The notes beneath the pieces are model-generated. The model ran no database searches, was not told the origin of the DNA, and saw nothing but the letters and a program-made list of their open reading frames with translations. A program made the translations under genes and the position numbers. From NCBI RefSeq assembly GCF_056746865.1, contig NZ_CM163382.1: a stretch of 64,000 nt of DNA, one strand, 5' to 3'. Positions 4,436 to 31,825 of the stretch are shown here, one piece after another (within the stretch, counting starts at the first letter, position 1; each line of letters starts with the position of its first letter).

Positions 4436-5314
4436 CTACAGATGTTGCTCTCTGGTTGTTGTACTAGTCGGGAGATCCTGTGGATCGACATTTTCCTTCG
4501 CGTGAGCATTGATGCTGGAAGCGGTAAACGTCAGGATGAATACAACCGTGAATAAGATAACAATCGTTGGTGCTGGTGCGCTGTCTATAAAAAAGGAGAG
4601 CCATACACCAGTCATTGAGACCATTACCGATATACCGAGCGCCAGCAGGAGCGCAATATGAAAGCGTTGCGTCAGGAGTACCGCAATGGCGCCAGGCGCA
4701 ATGAGCAGAGAAATGGAGAGAATGATACCTACCGCTTTCAGCGTCGCCACAATGGTCAGAGAGACCATGCACAGCAGCCCATAATGCAGCCATCTCGTAT
4801 GCAAACCGCTTACCTGCGCCTGTTGATAATCAAAGCTGAACAGCAAAAAATCCCGCCATTTTACGCTAATAACAAGTGTAACCAGCCCGGCAATAATCAC
4901 CGTCTGGATTATATCGCCGATGGTTACCCCGAGCATGTCGCCGAAAAGAATATGGTCAAGATGTACGTCGGGTTTGACTGCAATATACAAGATCAGACCT
5001 GCGGCAAACATGCCAGAAAAAACAATCCCCATCACTGTATCTTGCTTGATTCGGCTGTTGTCTTTCAGGTATCCCGTCGCCACCGCGCAGAATACTCCGG
5101 CGACGAATGCTCCTCCCGCCAGAGGAAAACCCAGTATCCACGCAAGCACGATACCAGGAAAAACCGCATGACTCATCGCGTCTCCCATCAGTGCCCAACC
5201 TTTCAGGACCAGAAAGACCGACAGCAGCGCACAGGGTATGGAAACTACCAGTGAAATCAGCAGTGCGTGACTCATAAAGGTGAACTGCAGTGGCTCCAGT
5301 AATAATGCCATCAT
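4436..5314 (-). CDS. sitD: Iron/manganese ABC transporter permease SitD
   Basis: 292-aa polytopic membrane protein; last gene of four-gene operon with overlapping stop/start codons. Confidence 0.85.
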   Translation of the reverse strand: MMALLLEPLQFTFMSHALLISLVVSIPCALLSVFLVLKGWALMGDAMSHAVFPGIVLAWILGFPLAGGAFVAGVFCAVATGYLKDNSRIKQDTVMGIVFSGMFAAGLILYIAVKPDVHLDHILFGDMLGVTIGDIIQTVIIAGLVTLVISVKWRDFLLFSFDYQQAQVSGLHTRWLHYGLLCMVSLTIVATLKAVGIILSISLLIAPGAIAVLLTQRFHIALLLALGISVMVSMTGVWLSFFIDSAPAPTIVILFTVVFILTFTASSINAHAKENVDPQDLPTSTTTREQHL

Positions 5315-6168
5315 GAGCGATCCTCCAGCACCTTATGCGCACGCTGACGATTTGCCAAAAGCCCATGGGTGGGTGCAAAGACAAATGCTAAAAGAAACAG
5401 CAGTGTCTGCGCCACCACGATGATTCCACCTGTCGCTCCGTCCAGAAAGTAACTGACCCACGCGCCGAGGAAACTGGTTACACTGCCAATAGTTACAGCA
5501 ATCACGAGCAGGCGGGGAAAACGATCGGTTAACAACCATGCTGTTGCGCCAGGGGTCACTACCAGACAGATCACCAGAAAAGCCCCAACCGTTTGCAATG
5601 CTGCAACGGTCGATACCGCCAGCAGTGTGAAGAAGAGGATTTTTAATCTTCCTGGATATAATCCAATAGCACGGGCGTGATTTTCGTCGAAAAAGGTCAC
5701 CATAAGATCTTTCCATTTGAAAAAGAGCACTATGACTGAGACAATGCCAATGATAGTGAGTTGCAGGATATCCGCCGGAGCGATTGCCAGAATATTGCCC
5801 AGGACGATGGTCTGAATATTTACGGATGTCGGGTTTAATGACACCATAAACAGCCCCAGGCCAAAAAAGGACGAGAAGATCAGGCCGATGATGGCATCTT
5901 CTTTTAAGCGAGTGCGTTGGTTAAGAAACAGCATGCTGCCCGCAGCCAGTCCACCGGAAAAGAAGGCCCCCAGAGAAAACGGAAGCCCCAGCATATATGC
6001 CCCCGCAACACCCGGGACGATAGAGTGCGACAGCGCATCGCCAATCAGCGACCAGCCTTTTAGCATCAGATAGCATGACAGGAAAGCGCAGAGACCGCCG
6101 ACCATCGCCGCGACCCACATCGCATTGAGCATATATTCATAGCTGAAGGGTTCCAGTAGCACGTTCAT
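5311..6168 (-). CDS. sitC: Iron/manganese ABC transporter permease SitC
   Basis: 285-aa hydrophobic permease; 4-bp overlap with sitD and sitB. Confidence 0.85.
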
Positions 6169-6992
6169 CTTTCTTCCCTCTGCACCGCTGATGGTCGATA
6201 AGCCACAAAGGGGCGTTCATCGTCAGTAATAATGCTTTCTTCCGAGCCTTTAAGTGTGACATGGCGTAGTACGCCGCTAAAAGCCAGCTCCAGGTTCTCG
6301 GCTGTAAAAGTGGTGTCTGTCGGCCCGCTTGCCAGGACGGTGCCTTTGACCATGACCGTATAATCGCAAAATGTCGTGACGGATCCGAGATTGTGCGTTG
6401 AGACAAGCATCGTTTTGCCTTCCGCGCGTAACTCCCTCAACAGGCTGATGATTTTGGCTTCGGTTTTCACATCAACGCCGGTAAAAGGTTCATCCAGCAG
6501 GATCACATCACCCTGCTGTGCAATCGCTCTCGCCAGAAAGACGCGTTTCTTTTGTCCACCGGAAAGCTCGCCGATTTGTCGATGGCGAAAATCTACCATA
6601 TCGACACGTTCCAGCGCATCGGTGACAACCTGACGATCCCTCTTATTGGCTATACGCAACATACCCATATGCCCATAGCGGCCCATCATCACCACATCTT
6701 CCACCAGTACAGGAAAGGACCAGTCCACTTCTTCTGACTGCGGGACGTAGGCAATCAGGTTTTTCTGCAGAGCCTGCCGCGTGGGAATACCCAGAACAGA
6801 TATCTTTCCGGTAGTCAGACGCACGAATCCCATAATCGCTTTAAATAACGTCGATTTTCCGGAACCGTTTACCCCAACCAGAGCGGCAATAGATCCGCCT
6901 GGTACTGTGAAGGATGCATCGCGCAGTGCTGTGTGCCCGTTACGCCAGGTGACAGTAACGCCATTAACGACAATACCCGCAGATTGCATCAT
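6165..6992 (-). CDS. sitB: Iron/manganese ABC transporter ATP-binding protein SitB
   Basis: Walker [10 protein letters not shown] and ABC signature LSGGQKKR in translation. Confidence 0.9.
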
Positions 6993-7906
6993 TACTTCTC
7001 CCTTTTCCCGGCTTTAATTCCCTGCACCAGCGTACTGGTAGTAACCTTCAGAAGGTCGATATACGTAGGTACCGGGCCGTTTTCTGTGCTCAGGGAATCG
7101 ACATAGAGCACACCGCCGTAGTGTGCGCCGGTTTCACGCGCAACCTGACGCGCTGGTTTATCGGAAACCGTACTCTCACTAAATACCGCTGGGATATTAT
7201 TTTTCTTCACTATATCAACCACTTTACGTACCTGCTGGGGTGTTCCTTGTTGATCGGCATTTATCGGCCACAGATAAAGCTCTTTTAGCCCCAAATCGCG
7301 TGCGAGATAAGAAAAAGCCCCTTCACTGGTGACCATCCATCTTTTATTCTCAGGGAGTTCAGCAATCTGCTTACGCAGGGGGGCAAGGGTTTGGGTAATC
7401 TTGGCTTTATAAGTATCGGCATTACGTTGGTATGTTTTTGCATTTGCCGGATCGTATTTTATCAACGCATCACGAATATTATCGACGTAAATCAAAGCAT
7501 TATCTGGTGACATCCAGGCATGAGGGTTAGGTTTTCCCTCGTAGGGGCCTTCGGTGATCCCTACTGGCGTCACACCCGAAGAGACAATCACTTCTGGAAC
7601 ACCATTGAGATGCTGGTAAAAGCGCTGGAACCACAATTCCAGATTCATTCCATTGGCGAGAATCAGTTGTGCCCCCTGCGCACGTTTAATATCGCCAGGG
7701 GTAGGCTGATACTCATGAATTTCCGCACCGGGCTTGGTTATGGATGAGACTTCTGCAACATCTCCAGCCACGTTTTTGGCCATATCTGCGATGATGGTAA
7801 ATGTTGTAATGACCTTGAATTTTTCAGTTGCACTCGCCTGAAATGCGATCGAGCAGGTGAGGGCGAGGAACCCCAAGAGCATGGTTAATTTTTTTATTGA
7901 GTGCAT
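6992..7906 (-). CDS. sitA: Periplasmic metal-binding protein SitA
   Basis: 304 aa with N-terminal signal peptide; first gene of operon; start overlaps sitB. Confidence 0.85.
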
Positions 7907-7979: not shown

Positions 7980-8000
7980 ATGCAAATGGTTATCATTAAT
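7980..8000. promoter_or_regulatory. Fur-box-like element upstream of sitA
   Basis: atgcaaatggttatcattaat; minus-strand reading taatgataaccatttgcat resembles the GATAATGATAATCATTATC consensus. Confidence 0.35.
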
Positions 8001-8140: not shown

Positions 8141-9287
8141 ATGAAGGGTAAAATTGTCTGCTGTGGAGCCTCTCAGATTTCCGGCATCATAGTGCCCAAT
8201 ACGGGATGCAAAAGCGCCCTCAGACTGGCGACTCCACAAATGAAATATACACCGGTTGGCGTTGATATCGCAAAGTATCTGATTCAGGTTCACTTCATCA
8301 ATGAGTACACGGGCGAAGTGGTGGACAAGCAGCTACGTAGCAAGGATTTTCTGACGTTCTTCAGCAACCGGGAACCCTGTCTGATAGGTATGGAGGCTTG
8401 TGGAGGCTCCCAACATTGGGCGAGGGAACTGGAAAAAACTGGGACACAAAGTTCGGCTGTTGCAAGCTCGCTTCGTTAAAGCATTCGTCATGGGCAACAA
8501 AAATGATGTGATGGATGCGCGTGCTATCTGGATGGCGGTACAGCAGCCCAGTAAAGATATCGCTGTTAAAACGGAAGAGAAGCAGTCAGTTCTGGTCCTG
8601 CACCGTTCGCGCAGACAACTGGTGAAGTTCAGAACCTCGCATATTAATACCCTTGGCACGCTCCTCGAGTTTGGTGAAATCCTCCACAAAGATTGGACAG
8701 CGATGGACAGAAAGCTACCGACAGCCCTAGAGCGAATGAAGACGAACCTGCCGCCGTATCTCATCACTGTGCTTGAATACCAGTACAACAGACTGAGTGA
8801 GCTGGGCATGCAGATAGATGGCCTTGATAAACAGATTAACAGCGTGGCACGGCAGAGCGAAAACTGTAAGCGCCTAATGGAAATCCCCGGTGTGGGGCCG
8901 TTAATCGCTACGGCGGTGGTCGCCACCATGGGCGAGGCCTCAGCATTTAAATCCGGACGTGAGTTTGACGCTTATGTCTGTCTGGTGCCGAAGCAGACGG
9001 GGTCCGCTGGGAAGGTTCGCATGCTGGGGATAAGCAAACGTGGGGATACCTACCACCGGACATTATTTATCCATGGGGCAAGGGCGGCAGCATTGCTTAC
9101 CAAAGAACCCGGCCCATGGATCACGGAGCTGAAAAAACGGCAGCCGACAGGTGTAATGCCGATCAGTTTAGGAGCAGTTGACCGATCCAGGGTCTGTTTA
9201 AGAATCCTGAAACGCTCACTCGTTTCCGGATTTTTGTGCACAGAAAAACCCCAGCTAGGCTGGGGGCCGGAAAGCTTTCAGCTTTGA
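8141..9287 (+). pseudogene. IS110-family transposase, frameshifted
   Basis: ORFs 8141-8479 and 8400-9287 overlap in different frames; N-terminal GVDIAK/MEACG and C-terminal IPGVGP/GISKRG motifs. Confidence 0.6.
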
Positions 9288-9325
9288 GCCAGTTATTAAA
9301 ACCCCTTTTGATTTGTTAAAACACC

Positions 9326-9616
9326 TTGCGGTCTGGCAACTGCAAGTGTCAAACAAGAAATCAAAAGGGGGTCCCAATGGGGAACGAAAAGAGCTTAGCG
9401 CATACCCGATGGAACTGTAAATATCACATAGTTTTTGCGCCAAAATACCGAAGAAAAGTGTTCTACAGAGAGAAGCGTAAAGCAACAGGCAGTATTTTGA
9501 GAAAGCTGTGTGAGTGGAAAAGTGTACGGATTCTTGAAGCTGAGTGCTGTGCAGATCATATCCATATGCTTGTGGAGATCCCGCCCAAAATGAGCGTATC
9601 CGGCTTTATGGGATAG
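9326..9616 (+). pseudogene. IS200-family TnpA, 3'-truncated
   Basis: MGNEKSLAHTRWNCKYHIVFAPKYRR...HIHMLVEIPPKMSVSGFMG matches IS200 TnpA; left-end hairpin cccttttgatttgtt/aacaagaaatcaaaaggggg upstream; ORF cut short at 9616. Confidence 0.65.
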
Positions 9617-11267: not shown

Positions 11268-11792
11268 ATGAAACGTAAACTTATTGCCTTTGTGATTCTG
11301 GCTACATCATCCTGTGGATATGCAGCCACCAAAGATGTAACAATGAATCTTGTTGATAGTGACGGAAAAGAGCGAAATATTGGTAAAATAACCATCCAGA
11401 AGACACCCTACGGGCTGCTGTTCACCCCTGATCTTCACTCCTTACCCGCCGGCATTCATGGTTTTCATGTACATGAAAACGCAAGTTGTGCTCCTGCCCT
11501 GAAAGATGGAAAAACTGTCGCTGCTTTATCTGCAGGTGGTCACTTTGACCCGGAAAAAACAGGGAAGCATCTCGGTCCATGGTCTCCTGATGGCCACCTA
11601 GGTGATCTCCCTGCGCTTTATGTCACTCATGACGGAAAAGCAACCTACCCGGTGCTTGCGCCAAGACTATCTGAATTAAAGGAGCTCGATGGCCGTTCGC
11701 TAATGCTCCACGCAGGAGGTGATAATCATGATGACCATCCTGAACCTCTAGGTGGCGGTGGTGCAAGAATTGCCTGTGGTATCATCCCATAA
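11268..11792 (+). CDS. sodC: Periplasmic Cu/Zn superoxide dismutase, acquired paralogue
   Basis: 174 aa with signal peptide, copper-site histidines (HGFHVHE, GGHFDPE) and C-terminal [12 protein letters not shown]; diverged from chromosomal SodC as recalled. Confidence 0.8.
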
Positions 11793-15317: not shown

Positions 15318-15760
15318 ACAGGCTGGTGTGGTTCGGATGTTCTTGCCCCCTCAATATCAGACTGCTATTGTATCTTAAGTTAACGTTATCCGCTGACGTC
15401 GATATTCCCGTGGTGAGAGATAACCTAACGCACTATGCGGATGGTTTTCATTGTAATGCTCGAACGCCTCTGCAAGGTTATGCAATGCCGTTATTACATT
15501 CAGTTTCGGCATGAACGCGATGTAGTCTTCATTCACGTTTTCACGAACCTTTCTGCCATTCTATTGCTCTGAGGGCTACTGACTGCCGTCGTGCAGGGCT
15601 CCAGATTCAACTCTCTGGCGAATTGCCGTGTTTCATGAGCCGTATAAGCCGAACCGTTATCCGTCCGCCACTGGATTGCTCGTTCCGGTCCTTTATCGCC
15701 AAAGCGTTTTTCTATCGCTCCTAACATCACATCCTGCACTGTCGGCTTTATCGTAACCTC
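15318..15760 (-). pseudogene. IS2-like (IS3 family) orfB C-terminal fragment with right inverted repeat
   Basis: [15 protein letters not shown]...[19 protein letters not shown]...[26 protein letters not shown] parallels IS2 OrfB; in-frame stop; terminal repeat ttaagatacaatagcagtctgatattgagggggcaag is IS2-IRR-like. Confidence 0.5.
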
Positions 15761-15789
15761 CCGTACTGGTCACGGGCAGACTGTTCATC

Positions 15790-16503
15790 ATGTTAAACCC
15801 AGCCGCTGTCAGATCATGCACCGGCCGGATGGCGGGCTGACCTGCCCCGCCGCGCTGCTGCCCGCCAATCCATTTCTTACCTTCCTTCCCGGTGGCCTGA
15901 CGTCCGGCCTCGTCCCCTTTCACCGCATCACCGTCACCGCTGTTCACCACCTTCTTGTACTCTTCCAGCATCGCTGGCCTGCGTCCATTTGCTGCGATCA
16001 GAAAAGTCCATCATCCGTTTTGCCATGTTCTGGCAGTTCAGTTACGCCTTGTCGAAAGCCACATTCGCCTGCAGCACACCGTTGGTGATCATGTCGTACA
16101 GGCCGGGGTTGGCACGCTGTATCACCATCGCCGGCAGACTGGCAGCGGCGCCGGTCGCCCCCTAAATCACATCCCCCATCAGATTTTTAAAGCCGTCGGT
16201 CAATCCGTTAAGATGATTACCCACCGTGGTCTTCAGGTCAAAGTTGCCGCACATCAGATCGCTGCTCCAGCCCAGGTCCATACCCAGCTTCTGCATGTTG
16301 CTGCGCGTGGCCAACTGTGAGATCACCGAGCCGCCACCCAGCGTATAGAACAGTTTGTCGGATACGGCGCCATCCACGGATTTCCCGTAACCGAACGTGC
16401 TGTCATTCAGTTTCGGCAGGGAAAGAAGATCAGCCATCGCCGGAATACTGCAGTACAGCATCACACTCAGTGCCACCATACCTGTTTTCATCTTCATCAT
16501 CAT
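15790..16503 (-). pseudogene. TraH-like conjugative transfer protein, disrupted
   Basis: ORF 16162-16503 has signal peptide and TraH-like N-terminus; reading continues in other frames to about 15790 with stops. Confidence 0.35.
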
Positions 16504-16509
16504 GGTTCC

Positions 16510-18365
16510 TTAAAAATTCGTACTGCCAAGGAATCGCTGCCCGCGCTTTTCGAAGCAGCTGTAAGGCTGCCACAGTGCAAAGGCTGCATTACCGTTCTCC
16601 GCCGCCTGGTGTTCACCATCCGGGAAAACGGCACAGGAACGCGACACTGACGGCGTCAGTCGCTGCCATTTGTGATTGCGGGTGCCGGTGTTTTCCTCCA
16701 CCGCCTCCGGGGGCCAGTAGCCGTCACGTTTCACGCCCTTAACCTCCCTGTAGACATGCGACTCCCCCATCCGCGTGATAATGTCGGCCACCCGCTGAGC
16801 CCCCACCGCCGCGGCCCGGTCATCATCGCTCTGCATCACAAAACCACTCCGGTGATAAACGCTCCCCCACATGTTTTTATCGGCCTAGCTGCCAATCTCG
16901 CGTTTGCCGGGAACCTGTGCCTCTGGATACAGGGATTCAGGTAATCCCGTTCGCTAGACGATGCTGTCCAGGGTACTGAGGAAATAGGCCATGGCCGGTG
17001 TCACCGGTGAATCACAGCTGAATCCGGGTACCATCCCGCCGATAAGCTGTGTGGCCGGATGACCCAGCGCATCTGCATATTTGAAACGAATTGCTGAACG
17101 GCGCTTCCCCTGTATTTTCATATCCGCCGGATTTCCCCCGCCGGCACTCAGCCCGGACAGGCCGTCAGTGATGGCATTCTCCGGGCCACCTGCGGTCCGG
17201 CTGACCAGCGACATCTCTTTCCAGGGATTACCACCCGGTGCCGTATAGGTGGAAATAACCACTTCCGGGATGAAATGTGTCACCTTCACGGAAATTCTGA
17301 CCGTACAGCCAGACGCGCTGCAGTAAAGCCAGTAACAAATCCCGCTGACACGCCAGCTGATATAGTCCGGTGCCGCAGTACTGGCGATAATGCTGGCGGT
17401 GTTCAGTGATACAGACGCCAGGGGCAGTGATGCCACACTCAGTAACAGCACGCCGGTACGCAGACGACATTTCAGGGACATCATGGCTGCACTCCTCCCT
17501 CAGCACGGATTTTCCCGGCCATCACCACATCCATGGTGCCGTAAACCACCTCACTGTCATCAAACACCACGGCAGGGTATTTCTTCACGCCCAGCGACTA
17601 GGCATGTGCCACATCGCGGTAATGACCGGCCAGTTCCGCCTGCATCGTCTGCCATTCGGGAGACTTCATACGTACCCTGACCACCGATTCAGCCTCACCC
17701 GCATCAGCAGGCAACAGGCCCCAAAAGCGGCTCTGAAGCTGCTCAGGCGCATCCAGCAGAACCACCCTGACACCATCAGGAGGATTAACGGGAAGATGCT
17801 GAGAATCGGTATAAATTGTTGTGCCGGCAGACGCTGCCAGCGGCAGGAAAAACAGGGAACAGAAAATCCGGTACATCGTACACCTCAGTCAGATATTATC
17901 TGACTGACAGCGTGCGAAGAAAGCGCTCATTTATCAGCAATAAATTAAAAACGGGATTAAAAAATTACGGTGGGATCCGGGGAAGTGTATCTGCCAAGCA
18001 TAACAGACAGTCTGTGATTATACCCGGCCTTTCACAAAGCCGGGGAACTGATTCATACCAAGTGGTGATTTTCAACAATAAGTATAATGAGGTTGTCCCG
18101 GCACCGGTGGCAGTGGTTCGAGATAGACGTCATCAACAAAAACACAGGGGAATTTTTCAACTGCACATCCAGCACGCTCAGACATTACCTTCAGACTGAT
18201 ACCATGTTTCTCAGCATCAATAAAGAGGACATCTGCCCCTGTTTCATCCCGGAGATTTGTCGCATGATGCATGATCCGGTGTACTGAAGGACATGTTTTG
18301 TAACCAAAAACACATATACGCATGTTGCACCTCCTGATCACTGGTTGACGCCGATAATAAAACAA
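16510..18365 (-). pseudogene. Degraded conjugation-module remnants (TraU-like, signal-peptide protein, glutaredoxin-like protein)
   Basis: Co-directional short ORFs 16510-16872, 16954-17484 (CxxxxC motif ICYWLYCS), 17598-17876, 18072-18365 (CPSV glutaredoxin-like), separated by in-frame stops. Confidence 0.3.
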
Positions 18366-18809
18366 TAATGTGAGCGTAAAAAATGCACCTCATACCACAT
18401 TTCTGTAAAAGGCTCTGGCTATCACTGCAAAAAGCAAAATCTTAATTCCAGCATCACTTGTTACTCTCATTCCGTCACTTATATTTACCCACATGGCGAT
18501 GTATTTAATTACTGCCCATAAGAATAAAAGCCGCTGGCGGATTATTTCTTTATTACCCGGATGCGGTCACAAGCCCACACATCGTCAACTACCTGCCGGT
18601 AATATTAACTGTCAGAAGAACGCATACATCCGGATGTTTACAGAGTCGCGCGCCTGGTCACAGGTGACAACAGAAGTATGCCATACTAAAGGAGTAAACG
18701 GCGGGTCACTGGTGATCAAACACCTGCATCGTGTGTTGCTGCCACTGCCCTCAGGTGACAGAGGCAGCATCTTTACGTATTATAATGCGTTATATCGGGT
18801 TTGTTGTTA

Positions 18810-20897
18810 TCAGAACTGATAGTTCAGCGACATCCAGTAATTTCTCTCAGGTATCACATAACCCGTTGTCGATGCCCCCGTCTGGAAGTAATCACCCGCA
18901 TAAAGCGTACCACTGCCGGCACGATACAGACTTACGTCACTGTAATCCTTGTTAAGCACATTATTCACCGCTGCATTCAGCATCAGTGCATCCGTCACTT
19001 TCCACGACATGCCCGCATCCAGTACCGTCCAGGCTTTCAGATATTCACCTTTCTCATCATACACTTTCTTCTGTACAGCTGAGAGTGACGAATAATTCTG
19101 GGTGAAACGTGGCGTTTTCCCGCGGTAACGGGCACCCAGCCATGATGTCACCTCTTCAGTAATCTGCCAGTTCAGTTTCGCATTCACCATATGCTCAGGG
19201 GTGTAACTCAGTGGTGCACCTTTATTATCCCCATCCCGTTGTTCACTCTGCGTCCAGGTATAATTCAGAGACAGAGTCACATCCTCTGACAACAGAGGCA
19301 GTGTGCCGGCAAATTCCACGCCCTGAGTCCTAGCCTTTCCGCTGTTTGTGTAGCTGCGGGTATTATCATCAATGGAATAAGATACGATCTTGTTGGAGAA
19401 TTCTGTCATAAAGCCCGTGATATTGGCGTTCAGACCGGCATGATTATCGTAATACACGCCCGCTTCATAACTGACACTCTCCTCCGGCTTCAGGTCCGGG
19501 TTACCGAGAAGATTCGTACGCCCCTGACCGGACACACCGCTGATCCCCTTATGTAACTGCCCCATGCTGGGCGCCTTATATCCCGTGGTCACCCCACCTT
19601 TCAGCGTCCACGCATCAGTCACATCCCAGACCATATATGCCCGGGGACTGAAGTGTCCTCCGAACACCTCATAGCGTTCATAGCGGCTACCCGCAGTCAG
19701 TGCAAATGCATCCGTGATATACCACTCATCCTCAACAAATGCCGACCAGCTTTTCTGACGGAAGGTTTCACCAGTACTGGCGAGAACAACCCCGTCTTTC
19801 ATGGAGGAGTTCTGATACTCACCACCGACGGTAACCTTGTGTGATTCCCCCAGAGGTGCAAACAGTAATGAGCTCAGGATAAGATTCGACTCCTTAAGCT
19901 CCCTCGGCTGGCCGGCAAGCCCCCATTTATCACGCTGCAGTACGCTACGTACAAGCTGACGGCCTTTATTTTCCGTCTCATTCCAGTTCAGAGATGACTT
20001 CCAGGCTCCGAAGGTGAATGTATGATCATAGCCTGCTGAAATTTTATTACGCTCATAGCGCAGGGTGCGATCATAACCGCCCGTCAGACTGCCCAGCTGG
20101 CCATCTCGGTTATCATAACGCTGCCGGGCGATATCCATATCAATCCAGAGTACATCCTTGTCCGTCGCTTTCCAGTCAAGACGACCACCTGCATTATAAT
20201 TCTGTGATTCCGTGGGATAAGGGATACGCGTAGCTGAGGTGTCGCTCAGTGATGTGACCGATGAGCCCTGACGCTGCTGTGTGCTGCCACGTACCTGAAG
20301 GCTGAGTGAATCATCCACAAGGGGACCGCTGCTCCAGAAATTAAACTGGCTGCTGTTCCCCCATTTGTTACTTTCCTGCAGGTTCAGCCCGGCATTAACC
20401 GAAGAGCGCCATTTGTCTGCATTCTTTTTGGTGATGATATTCACCACGCCCCCCATGGCATCAGAGCCGTACAGAGTGGACATGGGGCCCCTGATAATCT
20501 CAATACGTTCGATGGCGGCCAGAGGTGGCATAAAACCCGTATTCATGGCAGCATAACCGTTTGGGGTTACGTCACTGCTCCCGCCCTGACGGACACCATC
20601 GATCAGTATCAGCGTATAACTGGCAGGCATTCCGCGGATGCTGATTTCGAGCCCACCTGTTTTACCCGTACCGCTTTCAACATCCACCCCCTCTACGGAT
20701 CTCAGTGCCTCCCCCAGATCATGATACTGGCTGGATCGCAAATCCTCCTGGCTGATCACTGAAACACTCGCAGCTGCACTGGTTAATTTTTTTTCATAGC
20801 CAGACGCCGTGACTACCATCACATCTTCCGCAGCCATACTGCTGACTGAAAACCCGAGACAAGGGATGGCTACTGAAGCCAGAGTGGTTACTCGCAT
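18810..20897 (-). CDS. iha: TonB-dependent siderophore receptor/adhesin, Iha-like (IrgA homologue)
   Basis: 695 aa with signal peptide, TonB-box-like EDVMVVTAS, plug plus beta-barrel, C-terminal aromatic residue; size and sequence recalled as Iha. Confidence 0.6.
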   Translation of the reverse strand: MRVTTLASVAIPCLGFSVSSMAAEDVMVVTASGYEKKLTSAAASVSVISQEDLRSSQYHDLGEALRSVEGVDVESGTGKTGGLEISIRGMPASYTLILIDGVRQGGSSDVTPNGYAAMNTGFMPPLAAIERIEIIRGPMSTLYGSDAMGGVVNIITKKNADKWRSSVNAGLNLQESNKWGNSSQFNFWSSGPLVDDSLSLQVRGSTQQRQGSSVTSLSDTSATRIPYPTESQNYNAGGRLDWKATDKDVLWIDMDIARQRYDNRDGQLGSLTGGYDRTLRYERNKISAGYDHTFTFGAWKSSLNWNETENKGRQLVRSVLQRDKWGLAGQPRELKESNLILSSLLFAPLGESHKVTVGGEYQNSSMKDGVVLASTGETFRQKSWSAFVEDEWYITDAFALTAGSRYERYEVFGGHFSPRAYMVWDVTDAWTLKGGVTTGYKAPSMGQLHKGISGVSGQGRTNLLGNPDLKPEESVSYEAGVYYDNHAGLNANITGFMTEFSNKIVSYSIDDNTRSYTNSGKARTQGVEFAGTLPLLSEDVTLSLNYTWTQSEQRDGDNKGAPLSYTPEHMVNAKLNWQITEEVTSWLGARYRGKTPRFTQNYSSLSAVQKKVYDEKGEYLKAWTVLDAGMSWKVTDALMLNAAVNNVLNKDYSDVSLYRAGSGTLYAGDYFQTGASTTGYVIPERNYWMSLNYQF

Positions 20898-20946
20898 ATC
20901 TTCTCTCCGATTATATTAATCAGAGAGAAGATAAACAAACGCAAGA

Positions 20947-20965
20947 GATAATGAGAATGATTTGC
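20947..20965. promoter_or_regulatory. Fur box upstream of the Iha-like receptor gene
   Basis: gataatgagaatgatttgc, strong match to the Fur consensus, about 50 bp upstream of the start. Confidence 0.45.
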
Positions 20966-21209
20966 TTTTGGTTTTTACATAAAAAAGCAAAAAATTACAA
21001 AATATTACATAAGGTTCTACTATACCCCGAATTTCAGTTGAGGACGTTCTTTTCTCTAGGGGAAAGTAACGGATAGCAATCGTTGACGATCCATATCGGA
21101 TTTTTGCACTATGGGTATTTATCCAATCTTTATCAGTTTCTTGTCCTTGGATATGTTAATCATACACTATCGGATATTTCGTACATCAGACAGGTGAATA
21201 TAATTAATA

Positions 21210-21494
21210 ATGAGGAGTTTTATGGACAATAGAACAATTACTCTGCAGGAATTACTCGAGTACATGTCAATGCTTCGAGACGACATGAATGCTCTCACGG
21301 TTGCATTTTCATATCTGGCTTCATCGCTTCCTAAGGAACAGATGATACAAATACTGGCATTCATTCATTTTGAATCAAATAATTCCAGATGGTCTTCAGA
21401 ACAGCAGAAATCTTTCAAATGGCTAGCATCACTACTGGAGGGCTGTTATACAGTTCACACAAACATTTTTGATATACCATCAAAGAACCACTAG
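21210..21494 (+). CDS. Hypothetical small protein in AT-rich DNA
   Basis: 94-aa ORF; no recognisable motif. Confidence 0.2.
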   Translation: MRSFMDNRTITLQELLEYMSMLRDDMNALTVAFSYLASSLPKEQMIQILAFIHFESNNSRWSSEQQKSFKWLASLLEGCYTVHTNIFDIPSKNH

Positions 21495-22158
21495 TACATT
21501 ATGATACATTCCCTCTGAAATATATTTCTACTTTGAGCGCCTCTGACTTTATGAGGCGCTTTGTCCAGCAAACCAAACATACTCGCTGGAAACAGAGTAA
21601 AGTATTATTATCCCCGATACATCTATATTTTACAACAGCGCATCCATATATTAATTAACGATGCAGTTAAGTTCCCCATTCTACCCAATTTACTGTTTTT
21701 GTTGTTTGAAAGAAGACTCTCATTAAGTGAGAGCCATCTGTAAGTATCCCGCATAATCGCTCCATTCATATTTAGAGATCATCCGGAATAATCAATCTGA
21801 TAACGAAGAAAATCGCTATGCGTAAAGCCCGTATTACTGAGTATTAGATCATCGCTGTAATTAAATCGGTTGAAACCGGACGAACAATTAAAGATGTTTG
21901 TCGGGAAGCCGGTATTTCTGAAGCCACTTACTACATCTATTGACTACCTCAGTTTTGCAAGCACTGATTCTGGTTTTGGATTGTTGCTTACATCTATCCG
22001 GCATCAGGAAAACCTGTGCCCAAATAGGGAATCCACACACAATCGCCTCTACAACTGGACGACCTCTGAGGCCAGTACAAAAATCAGGTTCCGATTGTGC
22101 AGGTGCAACCCGTCACCATTTCTCAGTACGCTGCAACTTTTGCTGAAAGAGATTAACT

Positions 22159-26122: not shown

Positions 26123-27661
26123 TTATTCAGTCGGCAGTGCTACGCGCCAGGGGAGCAGTTCGCCGACCCGGTTTATCGGCCAGTCGGCTATGACGTCAAG
26201 GACATAGCGGAGGTAGCTTTCTGGCTCCACTCCGTTCAGTTTGCACGTCCCGATCAGGCTGTACAGCAGCGCTCCCCGCTCTCCTCCATGATCCGAACCG
26301 AAGAACAGGTAGTTTTTGCGGCCCAGACTGACCATCCGCAACGCATTTTCAGCGATGTTATTGTCCGCCTCAGCCCAGCCATCATCTGCATAGTACGTCA
26401 GCGCCGGCCACTGGTTCAGGGCGTATGCGAACGCTTTCGCCAGTTCTGAGTGTCGCGACAGGGTTTTCATCTTTTCACGCAGCCAGCTTTCCAGGGATTT
26501 CAGCAGCGGTTTCGTTTTCAACTGACGTTCGGCAAGGCGCTGCTCCGCCGTCATTCCCCTTATCTCTGCCTCGATGGCGTACAGTTCGCCGATCCGTTTC
26601 AGCGCTTCCTCCGTCAGGGCTGACGGGGTGCGAACGTGCACATCGTGGATTTTACGGCGGGCGTGAGCCCAACAGGCGGCTTCCGTTATCCGGCCATCCC
26701 GGTACAGCTCGTTGAACCCGGCGTATGCATCCGCCTGCAGTACACCACTGAACCCCGCAAGATGGGTCTGCGGATGGATGCCTTTTCTGTCCGGGCTGTA
26801 AGCGAACCACACCGCCGGCGCCAGCGTTGACCCGGCGTTACGGTCGTCACGAACGTAGGTCCATAACCGCCCGGTCTTCGTTTTCTTATTGCCTGGCAAC
26901 AGCACCGGGACAGGCGTGTCATCAGCATGGAGCTTACCGTCAGTCAGCACATAGTCCTGAAGCGCTTCTTCCAGCGGTGACAGTAGCCGGCAGCATGCAT
27001 CCACCCAGCCCGACAGCAGTGAACGACTCAGCTCCACGCCCTGGCGGCCGTACATTTCAGACTGGCGGTACAGCGGGGTGTGCTCTGCATACTTTGAGAT
27101 CAGCACGCGGGCCAGCAGCCCCGGTCCTGCGATACCCCGCTCGATGGGCCGTGAAGGCGCGGGGGCCTGCACGATGGCATCGCACTGAGTACAGGCATGC
27201 TTTTCACGTACAGTCCGGATAACCCGGAAGGCGCTGCGCATCAGCTCCAGCTGTTCGGCGGCATCCTCACCCAGATAGCTCAGCGAGCCTCCACATTCCG
27301 GGCAGCATGACGCTGCCGGCAGCAGCCGTTTTTCATCGCGGGGGAGTGATTCGGGGAACGGTTTGCGGGTGCGGGTTTGACGCAGCGGGCGCTGCACGGC
27401 CGGGTCGTCAACCCGACCGGTAAGGGTATCACTTTCTTTCTGAAGTGCCTTCAGGTCAGCTTCCATCTGTGCGATACGACGGGAGACTTTTTCCGAGCGG
27501 CTGCCGAAGTTCATCCGGCGCAGCTTATCCAGCTGTGCCTGCAGATGGTCTATTTCGCGTTCACGCTCGTTCAGCTTTTCCTGCAGGGCACGGTTCAGCG
27601 CCTCCTGTTCGGCAAGGAGACGTTTCAGTGCATTGATATCGTCAGGAAGTGAGCTGCTCAT
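26123..27661 (-). CDS. IS66-family transposase TnpC
   Basis: 512 aa with CCPECGG zinc motif and IS66 DDE core. Confidence 0.85.
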
Positions 27662-31079: not shown

Positions 31080-31825
31080 TGAGTGCATTTCGTACAGTTA
31101 ACCGCAAAAGGAGGGGGTACTCCATTCCATGAACTGGAAGCCCAGATACGATGCATAGAGTCACCTGATATTAAAAAGAACGAGGATCTTGAGGACGAGA
31201 ACCGACGTCCAAAACAGATGCTTGCCGACCTTAGCCTAGAGAACCGGCATTGAAAGACATTATCGAAAAAAGCTTTAAAACCAGCCTGTAAGCGTGAGCT
31301 TGTTACTCATCAGATAACGACATTTGGACTCAGTGTCCATCAGGCCTGCCGGAGTCTGAACCAGAGCAGAACGGTTTCCCATTACCGTCCGGATACCACG
31401 TGGTACGACCCCGTTATTGTGGTGGTGCAGGCAGTGGACGAGCGATATCCTCGATACGGTTTTTCAAAACTTTTTCAGGTTCTGAGGCAGCAGGTTCGCG
31501 GCAAATCGCAGTTATCCGGTCATGCTGCGCATAGATAATGGTTCGGAATTTATCTCTCTAACGCTGGCTGAATGGGCTGATATACACGCAGTAAAACGGG
31601 AGTTTATCCAGCCGGGTAAGCTGACGTAGAACGCTTTTATTGGGCGTTTTAACAGGACACACCGTACAGAAATACTCGATTTTTATCTGTTCAGAACGCT
31701 GAATGAAGTTCTAGAAATTACGGAGAAATGGTTATCAGAATATAGCTATGAACGCACACATGAATCACTGAACAATAAGACGCTGGAAGAATATCGACGA
31801 CACCATTATTTGACCAAGATATAAA
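31080..31825 (+). pseudogene. IS3-family transposase remnant, heavily degenerate
   Basis: OrfA C-terminus (ENRRPKQMLADLSLEN) and orfB C-terminus (ERFNRTHRTEILD...ERTHESLNNKTLEEY) recognisable between many stops. Confidence 0.4.

Follow-up and report, generated by a model that had tools for sequence, protein, structure and literature searches.

The 64,000-nucleotide stretch of contig NZ_CM163382.1 (NCBI RefSeq assembly GCF_056746865.1), hereafter the window, carries an intact coding sequence of iha on the minus strand (18810–20897), preceded by a Fur box at 20947–20965. The product is the TonB-dependent catecholate siderophore receptor and adhesin Iha, in a diverged form referred to below as the ICE-type allele. 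This copy is very probably a functional, Fur-controlled iha of a minority lineage that persists as the relic of a decayed integrative and conjugative element (ICE). The gene and its regulation are already known, and the window copy resembles the known gene and adds no new biology to it. What is added is the description of a diverged minority allele and its placement as a remnant of a decayed ICE.

The iha gene and its product

A single uninterrupted open reading frame (ORF) runs on the minus strand from 20897 to 18810 and comprises 695 codons and a stop. Its GC content is 51.6%, against 49.4% for the window. The translated protein matches the NCBIfam Iha equivalog NF010012 (PRK13486) with 1538.7 bits at a cutoff of 924, residues 1–695 aligning to profile positions 1–696, and the CfrA, IreA, CirA, FepA, and BtuB equivalogs of NCBIfam all score under their own cutoffs. 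Pfam assigns a Plug domain to residues 39–151 and a TonB_dep_Rec barrel to residues 221–647. By BLASTP, 628 of 696 positions are identical to Iha of O157:H7 (90%), with one 1-residue gap and 67 amino-acid differences, and the gene is 100% identical to RefSeq iha loci encoding WP_001266790.1. The protein thus combines the equivalog match with the architecture of a TonB-dependent transporter, and it is a member of the Iha family. The first-pass annotation, made from the letters of the window, had proposed an Iha-like receptor; the full-length profile match, the identity to the O157:H7 protein, and the RefSeq name of the identical DNA all bear it out.

The N-terminal export and energy-coupling region occupies 20805–20897 on the minus strand. 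It opens with a candidate signal peptide read from the translation, residues 1 to about 22 or 23 (MRVTTLASVAIPCLGFSVSSMAA), and continues with EDVMVVTASG. We take DVMVVTA (residues 25–31, 20805–20825) to be the TonB box from its likeness to the boxes of FepA, CirA, and BtuB; V29, A31, and G33 are invariant or nearly so across 36 homologues. At its other end the protein finishes in NYQF, with an aromatic residue, Phe, in the terminal position. An AlphaFold2 model built from 36 homologues, with a predicted local distance difference test score (pLDDT) of 69.5 and a predicted template modelling score (pTM) of 0.74, displays a plug and 22 barrel strands. Its top folds in the PDB are Cir, PirA, PfeA, and FepA (Foldseek E values of 1e-41 to 1e-47, template modelling scores of 0.73–0.79), and a PDB sequence search returned CirA as the nearest solved structure (E = 7e-79).

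Canonical Iha is described as a catecholate siderophore receptor in work cited in PMC6313751, and epithelial adherence has been reported for Iha of O157:H7 and of uropathogenic E. coli (UPEC). By analogy with the canonical allele, the window allele would take up ferric catecholates (enterobactin and dihydroxybenzoylserine, DHBS). It may likewise mediate adherence to epithelial cells, with which its conserved predicted surface loops are compatible.

Iha as cargo of a decayed ICE

A sister allele, WP_024210527.1, which shares 94.7% nucleotide and 95% amino-acid identity with the window allele, is found inside a complete ICE of E. coli strain AR_0089 (NZ_CP032265.1). There, iha lies between a conjugative ATPase gene with a small ORF on one side and a TIGR03757 gene on the other, in the orientation of the operon. 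The element also encodes STY4528/STY4534-type replication functions, PFL_4669, the TIGR03745–03759 series, TraD, TraG, and an integrase-domain protein, and from the names of these gene families we take it to belong to the SPI-7/PAPI-1/ICEclc family. According to blastn, the window is collinear with this ICE over 15761–17956 (95.0% nucleotide identity) and 18737–21011 (93.4%). The second segment, on the minus strand, is the homologue of the AR_0089 insert that carries iha. Nested within it is the homology to canonical iha loci, which extends from about 18800 to about 20985 and covers the gene, 10 bp past its stop, and about 88 bp upstream.

Directly 3' of iha, tblastn with the AR_0089 proteins located a remnant of the mating-pair-formation operon (15723–17876, minus strand). 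It consists of a truncated ICE protein fragment with two stops and a frameshift (15723–16476), a TIGR03756 pseudogene with TAG at codons 177 and 200 (16513–17484), and a TIGR03757 pseudogene with TAG at codon 93 (17484–17876), all on the minus strand. Five in-frame stops were counted in the tblastn matches, and the three in the TIGR03756 and TIGR03757 genes were confirmed as TAG codons; RefSeq, too, labels the ICE genes in identical loci as pseudogenes. The window holds no functional complete ICE: the three ICE genes present are pseudogenes, and neither the conjugative ATPase nor the small ORF that stands 5' of iha in AR_0089 gave a tblastn match in the window. The synteny of iha with TIGR03756, TIGR03757, and the ICE protein is that of the intact element, which points to an origin of the gene as ICE cargo.

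Two further observations concern this side of the gene. Relative to AR_0089, the three confirmed TAG codons (16513–17876) are all the result of transitions, with TGG changed to TAG at two of them and CAG to TAG at the third. The stretch that separates the TIGR03757 pseudogene from the end of iha is 780 bp long in the window (17957–18736); the AR_0089 ICE has 385 unrelated bp at that place.

On the upstream side, ICE homology stops at 21011, 114 bp before iha, and so includes the Fur box. Beyond this point, an AT-rich segment of about 730 bp (21012–21740, 33–38% GC) takes the place of the ICE sequence. In the complete E. coli genomes it is confined to the 59 records that carry the ICE-type allele, and an IS110-family relic comes after it. 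A 94-amino-acid ORF (21210–21494, plus strand), annotated in relatives as the hypothetical protein WP_000370415.1, has no Pfam or NCBIfam match. As for the AT-rich flanks initially ascribed to the gene, the description fits the upstream side, where GC content is 33–39% over about 900 bp (about 20950–21850); the 600 bp downstream are only mildly AT-rich, at 40–47% GC.

Retention of iha beside dead ICE genes

Judged from its codons, iha is under strong purifying selection. By the Nei-Gojobori method, the ratio of nonsynonymous to synonymous divergence (dN/dS) between the window allele and four canonical alleles is 0.066–0.083, at a synonymous divergence (dS) of 0.61–0.78. Against the AR_0089 allele it is 0.136 (dS 0.17), and the adjacent ICE pseudogenes give 0.33 and 0.69 in the same comparison. 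The five in-frame stops fall in about 710 ICE codons, and the 695 codons of iha contain none where about five would be expected at the ICE rate; a rough Poisson calculation puts the probability of finding no stop in iha at about 0.005. At the level of sequence, the selection for retention that the first-pass annotation had suspected is supported, given the low dN/dS of iha beside three ICE neighbours with stops, a frameshift, and truncation. The accompanying statement, that the gene is intact amid mobile elements all of which have degraded, goes too far. Its first half stands, and the adjacent ICE genes and transposase fragments are indeed dead, but among the insertion sequences (IS) an IS630-family ORF is full length against its profile, and ORFs of the IS66 and IS21 families are essentially so.

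An alternative is that iha is intact merely through recent spread of the whole block, with too little time to decay and no selective maintenance in the carrier genomes. Some of the evidence agrees with this. The gene is 99.7–100% identical in 59 records, and the surrounding 18–20 kb block (about 13100–33400), which consists mostly of transposase pseudogenes plus amiC, is 99.8–100% identical in most of the listed carriers and 98.3–99.2% in a few. A block that is near-identical down to its IS debris indicates a recent and near-clonal expansion, and other non-mobile genes of the block (amiC and sodC) are intact too. Against it, the same divergence from AR_0089 that left the ICE codons with five stops, a frameshift, and a truncation left iha with no such lesion, the difference in dN/dS between iha and the ICE pseudogenes points the same way, and all 59 copies align at full length in one piece. 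Recent spread as the sole reason for the intactness of iha is therefore considered improbable, and selective retention remains the preferred reading.

A minority lineage of iha

A megablast search with the 2.4-kb locus retrieved 59 complete E. coli records at 99.7–100% identity, strain SMS-3-5 among them, each of which bears the iha annotation (bifunctional siderophore receptor/adhesin Iha). The isolation sources are chicken, chicken meat, human, swine, and black kite. Other iha records are found at 80–90% identity (1536 records, a band that includes the canonical form) and at 90–95% (20 records). Several carriers of the ICE-type allele (e.g. NZ_CP156706.1, NZ_CP158308.1, and NZ_CP172185.1) have two iha matches per chromosome, and probably possess a canonical copy as well. 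In the protein database the exact sequence is present, with E. coli clusters at 95%, 91%, 90% (3765 members), 89%, and 76% identity; beyond these, chromosomal proteins of Citrobacter freundii and Citrobacter portucalensis are found at 73%.

In codon-level comparisons, the window allele shares 86.5% nucleotide and 90.4% amino-acid identity with iha of O157, 86.3% and 90.2% with that of UPEC strain EC958, 85.9% and 89.8% with the LAA-type, and 85.0% and 90.1% with the pO113-type. The canonical subtypes are closer to one another (91–94% nucleotide and 94–96% amino-acid identity), and the O157 and EC958 alleles are almost the same (99.6% and 99.7%). The published iha subtypes were likewise reported to share 91–94% mutual identity (Colello et al. 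2019, PMC6920203). The LAA-type and pO113-type references have no mismatch to the subtype primers of PMC6920203, and the window allele mismatches every primer of that study, with two and one bases in the 'general' pair and two to five in the subtype-specific ones. An origin of the window allele as a mosaic or recombinant of canonical iha was rejected, as identity in a sliding window is fairly even (0.79–0.93 per 50 codons).

The divergence of the protein raises the question of whether its function has shifted, for example in siderophore range, by loss of the adhesin activity, or by escape from colicins or phages, in which case 'Iha-like' would be a better name than Iha. In favour of such a shift, there are the 67 differences from O157 Iha, the position of the lineage apart from three published subtypes that differ from each other by only 6–9%, and the fact that its function is read across from canonical Iha. 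The distribution of the changes speaks against it. When the differences from O157 Iha are mapped on the AlphaFold2 model, the predicted extracellular loops appear as the most conserved part, with 11 differences in 189 residues (5.8%) against 52 in 483 (10.8%) for plug, strands, and turns (Fisher p = 0.055). Diversifying selection on the surface loops was rejected, since substitutions on this model, with its pLDDT of 69.5, are if anything depleted there. In addition, dN/dS is uniformly low, divergence is even with no mosaic or hypervariable block, and the full-length equivalog score lies far above the cutoff. A changed function is thus judged unlikely, and conservation of the receptor and adhesin roles is preferred.

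More tentatively, an unrecognized fourth iha lineage ('ICE-type') may be made up of the window allele and that of AR_0089. It would have spread as Fur-controlled cargo in the mating-pair-formation operon of SPI-7/ICEclc-type ICEs and, once the ICE had decayed, have reached fixation in E. coli associated with poultry and humans, and it would go untyped by the published subtype-specific polymerase chain reactions (PCRs). We regard this wider proposal as plausible but somewhat short of an even chance. Literature searches returned nothing specific on an ICE-borne or phylogroup-F-specific iha subtype.

The significance of the locus lies mainly in typing and in its history. Iha is a recognized virulence and colonization factor and a proposed vaccine antigen of extraintestinal pathogenic and Shiga toxin-producing E. 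coli (ExPEC and STEC). Allele-specific assays, and virulence-gene callers that apply identity thresholds, may overlook or mistype this lineage, which differs by 10% in its protein and is present in isolates from chicken, human, swine, and wild birds. The locus also shows clearly how a cargo gene can survive the conjugative element that carried it, and the adjoining pseudogenes provide an internal neutral control.

The Fur box and the upstream module

Both strands of the window were scanned with the classical 19-bp Fur-box consensus GATAATGATAATCATTATC. Only one site on either strand matches at 15 of 19 positions, namely GATAATGAGAATGATTTGC at 20947–20965 (−68 to −50 from the ATG), with a spacing of 49 nucleotides to the A of the ATG at 20897. 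This is the string that had been picked out earlier as a strong Fur box about 50 bp upstream of the start, and it is indeed the best match in the 64 kb. The second-best match, ATTAATGATAACCATTTGC (14 of 19; 7982–8000, minus strand), lies about 76 bp 5' of sitA (6992–7906, minus strand), with which the Fur-controlled sitABCD operon begins, and is probably the operator of that operon. Its recovery next to sitA indicates that the scan detects real iron promoters and provides an internal positive control. Another Fur-like site with 14 of 19 matches (11721–11739) is located inside the 3' end of sodC and was treated as a chance match.

In 200 dinucleotide-preserving shuffles of the window, sites with at least 15 of 19 matches occurred at a mean of 0.13, and 11.5% of the shuffles had any. 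Among 5000 shuffles of the AT-rich 200 bp 5' of the ATG, 0.32% attained 15 of 19.

Conservation provides a second line of evidence. In an alignment of the upstream regions of six iha alleles (window, AR_0089, O157, EC958, pO113-type, and LAA-type), whose nucleotide sequences diverge by up to 15%, no allele departs from the Fur-box core AAT[C/T]ATTCTCATT. The whole box scores 15 of 19 in the window, 14 in AR_0089, 13 in O157, EC958, and LAA, and 12 in pO113. With its box nearer to the consensus, the ICE-type allele could be more tightly repressed by iron than canonical iha. The Shine-Dalgarno block ATCGGAGA is also invariant in the six alleles, as are a TTTTGT and a TGTAAAA block. In the window, the Shine-Dalgarno sequence GGAGAG (20903–20908, minus strand) precedes the ATG by five nucleotides.

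Control by iron through Fur is textbook knowledge for siderophore receptors of the class of Iha. For canonical iha, repression by iron via Fur is attributed to Rashid et al. (2006), as cited in PMC6313751 and PMC2671405, and papers citing the work on the canonical gene mention a single-nucleotide difference 5' of the Fur box that changes regulation between strains. Together with the invariant core, this lends good sequence-level support to Fur regulation of the window allele, and to the earlier suggestion that its Fur box implies iron-regulated expression; the allele would accordingly bind Fur and respond to iron. That the 19-mer instead arose by chance in AT-rich sequence, or is kept as part of the promoter or 5' untranslated region of an allele that is regulated neither by Fur nor by iron, is most improbable: the 33% GC upstream favours AT-rich motif matches, shuffled windows contain a site of at least 15 of 19 in 11.5% of cases, the conservation of the core could stem from a promoter or leader function, and the site of this allele is known as a sequence, but local shuffles reach the score in only 0.3%, the site is placed as expected before an iron-uptake receptor, the core is fixed in six alleles while flanking bases vary, and canonical iha, with a weaker box (13 of 19), is reported from experiments to be repressed by iron and Fur.

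A candidate sigma-70 promoter was read by eye on the minus strand at 20972–21000, with TTGTAA (21000–20995), a spacer of 17 nucleotides, and TAAAAA (20977–20972). In the same register, the other five alleles have TTGTCA or TTGTTG, 17 nucleotides, and TAAAAG or TAAAAC. Transcription from this promoter is predicted to start at about 20965, at the first bases of the Fur box; both its position and the overlap with the operator derive from the by-eye reading. On the plus strand, a weak sigma-70-like match (TTTACA, 18 nucleotides, CAAAAT; 9 of 12) at 20974–21003 lies 9 bp from the Fur box and points toward the 94-amino-acid ORF. A divergent promoter and a chance occurrence are both conceivable; the 2.8-kb region scanned would by chance hold 4.5 sites of this kind. 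Downstream of iha, the consensus scan listed no intrinsic terminator.

Proposed mechanism and points against it

When iron is plentiful, Fe2+-Fur would occupy the 19-bp operator at 20947–20965, which coincides with the probable promoter or directly follows it, and block transcription. When iron is scarce, Fur would leave the operator and iha would be transcribed with a leader of about 68 nucleotides. The signal peptide (residues 1 to about 23) would direct export of the precursor, and the mature protein would fold into a plug and a 22-stranded barrel with the C-terminal Phe at its end. Uptake of ferric catecholates would be powered via the TonB box DVMVVTA. As to the history of the lineage, iha travels as cargo within the conjugation operon of a SPI-7/PAPI-1/ICEclc-type ICE, which then decayed here and left just iha and 114 bp 5' of it intact.

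Several points weigh against this picture. The consensus scan, at its thresholds, gave no sigma-70-like match 5' of iha in the direction of the gene, the candidate −10 TAAAAA has no final T of the usual kind, and a perfect TATAAT is present at 20915–20910, downstream of the Fur box. A true −10 at that place would put the Fur box 5' of the −35, which is an uncommon arrangement for a repressor site. Fur control, Fur binding, and transport by the window allele are deduced from its sequence, and the AlphaFold2 model is moderately confident, so the division into loops and strands is approximate. Finally, all 59 copies are 99.7–100% identical, and recent spread therefore explains part of the intactness of iha.

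The surrounding island

The window is an iron-acquisition island with iutA, sitABCD, sodC, and iha. It begins within iutA, the 3' part of which occupies 35–1846, followed by sitDCBA for iron uptake (4436–7906) and by sodC (about 11268–11792, with coordinates mapped from the annotation of a related genome). Three iron-uptake systems are thus found on one IS-riddled chromosomal island, and the island of strain 1517k adds iucABCD. Further genes include amiC, a group II intron, and a PhoX-family gene, with asrA at the end; no tRNA gene was found in the 64-kb window.

Among the mobile elements, a 343-residue IS630-family transposase ORF with full profile coverage (22651–23682, minus strand) lies 1.75 kb upstream of iha. 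Two IS66-family ORFs (26123–27661 and 51630–53243) and one IS21-family ORF (58503–60044) cover essentially the whole of their transposase profiles. The group II intron (43359–44972, plus strand) has a reverse transcriptase/maturase ORF of 413 amino acids (TIGR04416, 326 bits) and an Rfam Intron_gpII match at 44886–44972; its homologue in related genomes, ltrA, bears an internal stop and is classed as a pseudogene. Two other Rfam matches at gathering score are isrN (31277–31419, minus strand, 138 bits) and STnc490 (9246–9367, plus strand, 129 bits), both of which are island-associated, Hfq-binding small RNAs.

Comparison with known systems

The closest well-studied counterparts are canonical Iha of O157:H7 (O-islands OI-43/48) and of UPEC (PAI-CFT073-pheV; EC958). 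They agree with the window protein in length to within one residue, in 90% of the amino-acid sequence, in the plug and barrel, the TonB box, the C-terminal Phe, and the RefSeq product name, and their genes share the Shine-Dalgarno sequence, the Fur-box core, and the promoter-like hexamers upstream. They differ in nucleotide sequence, the identity of 86% and the dS of about 0.6 setting the window allele apart as a separate lineage. They also differ in the Fur box, which scores 13 of 19 against 15 of 19 in the window, and in the vehicle, a tellurite-resistance island or pheV pathogenicity island in the canonical case and a decayed ICE here. The iha-LAA/LPA and iha-pO113 subtypes belong to the same gene family and have the same promoter and Fur-box module and carriage by mobile elements, but the window allele is only 85–86% identical to each.

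By contrast, iha of AR_0089 shares with the window the flanking ICE genes, their order and orientation, and the upstream module, with a Fur box of 14 of 19. There the ICE is complete, with replication, type IV secretion system, TraD, TraG, and integrase-domain genes intact, whereas in the window it is down to pseudogenes spanning about 2.1 kb on one side of iha and breaks off 114 bp upstream of the gene on the other. At a greater distance, CirA, FepA, PfeA, and PirA have the same fold and belong to the same class of Fur-repressed siderophore receptors, but with only 24–30% identity to Iha they represent paralogous families.

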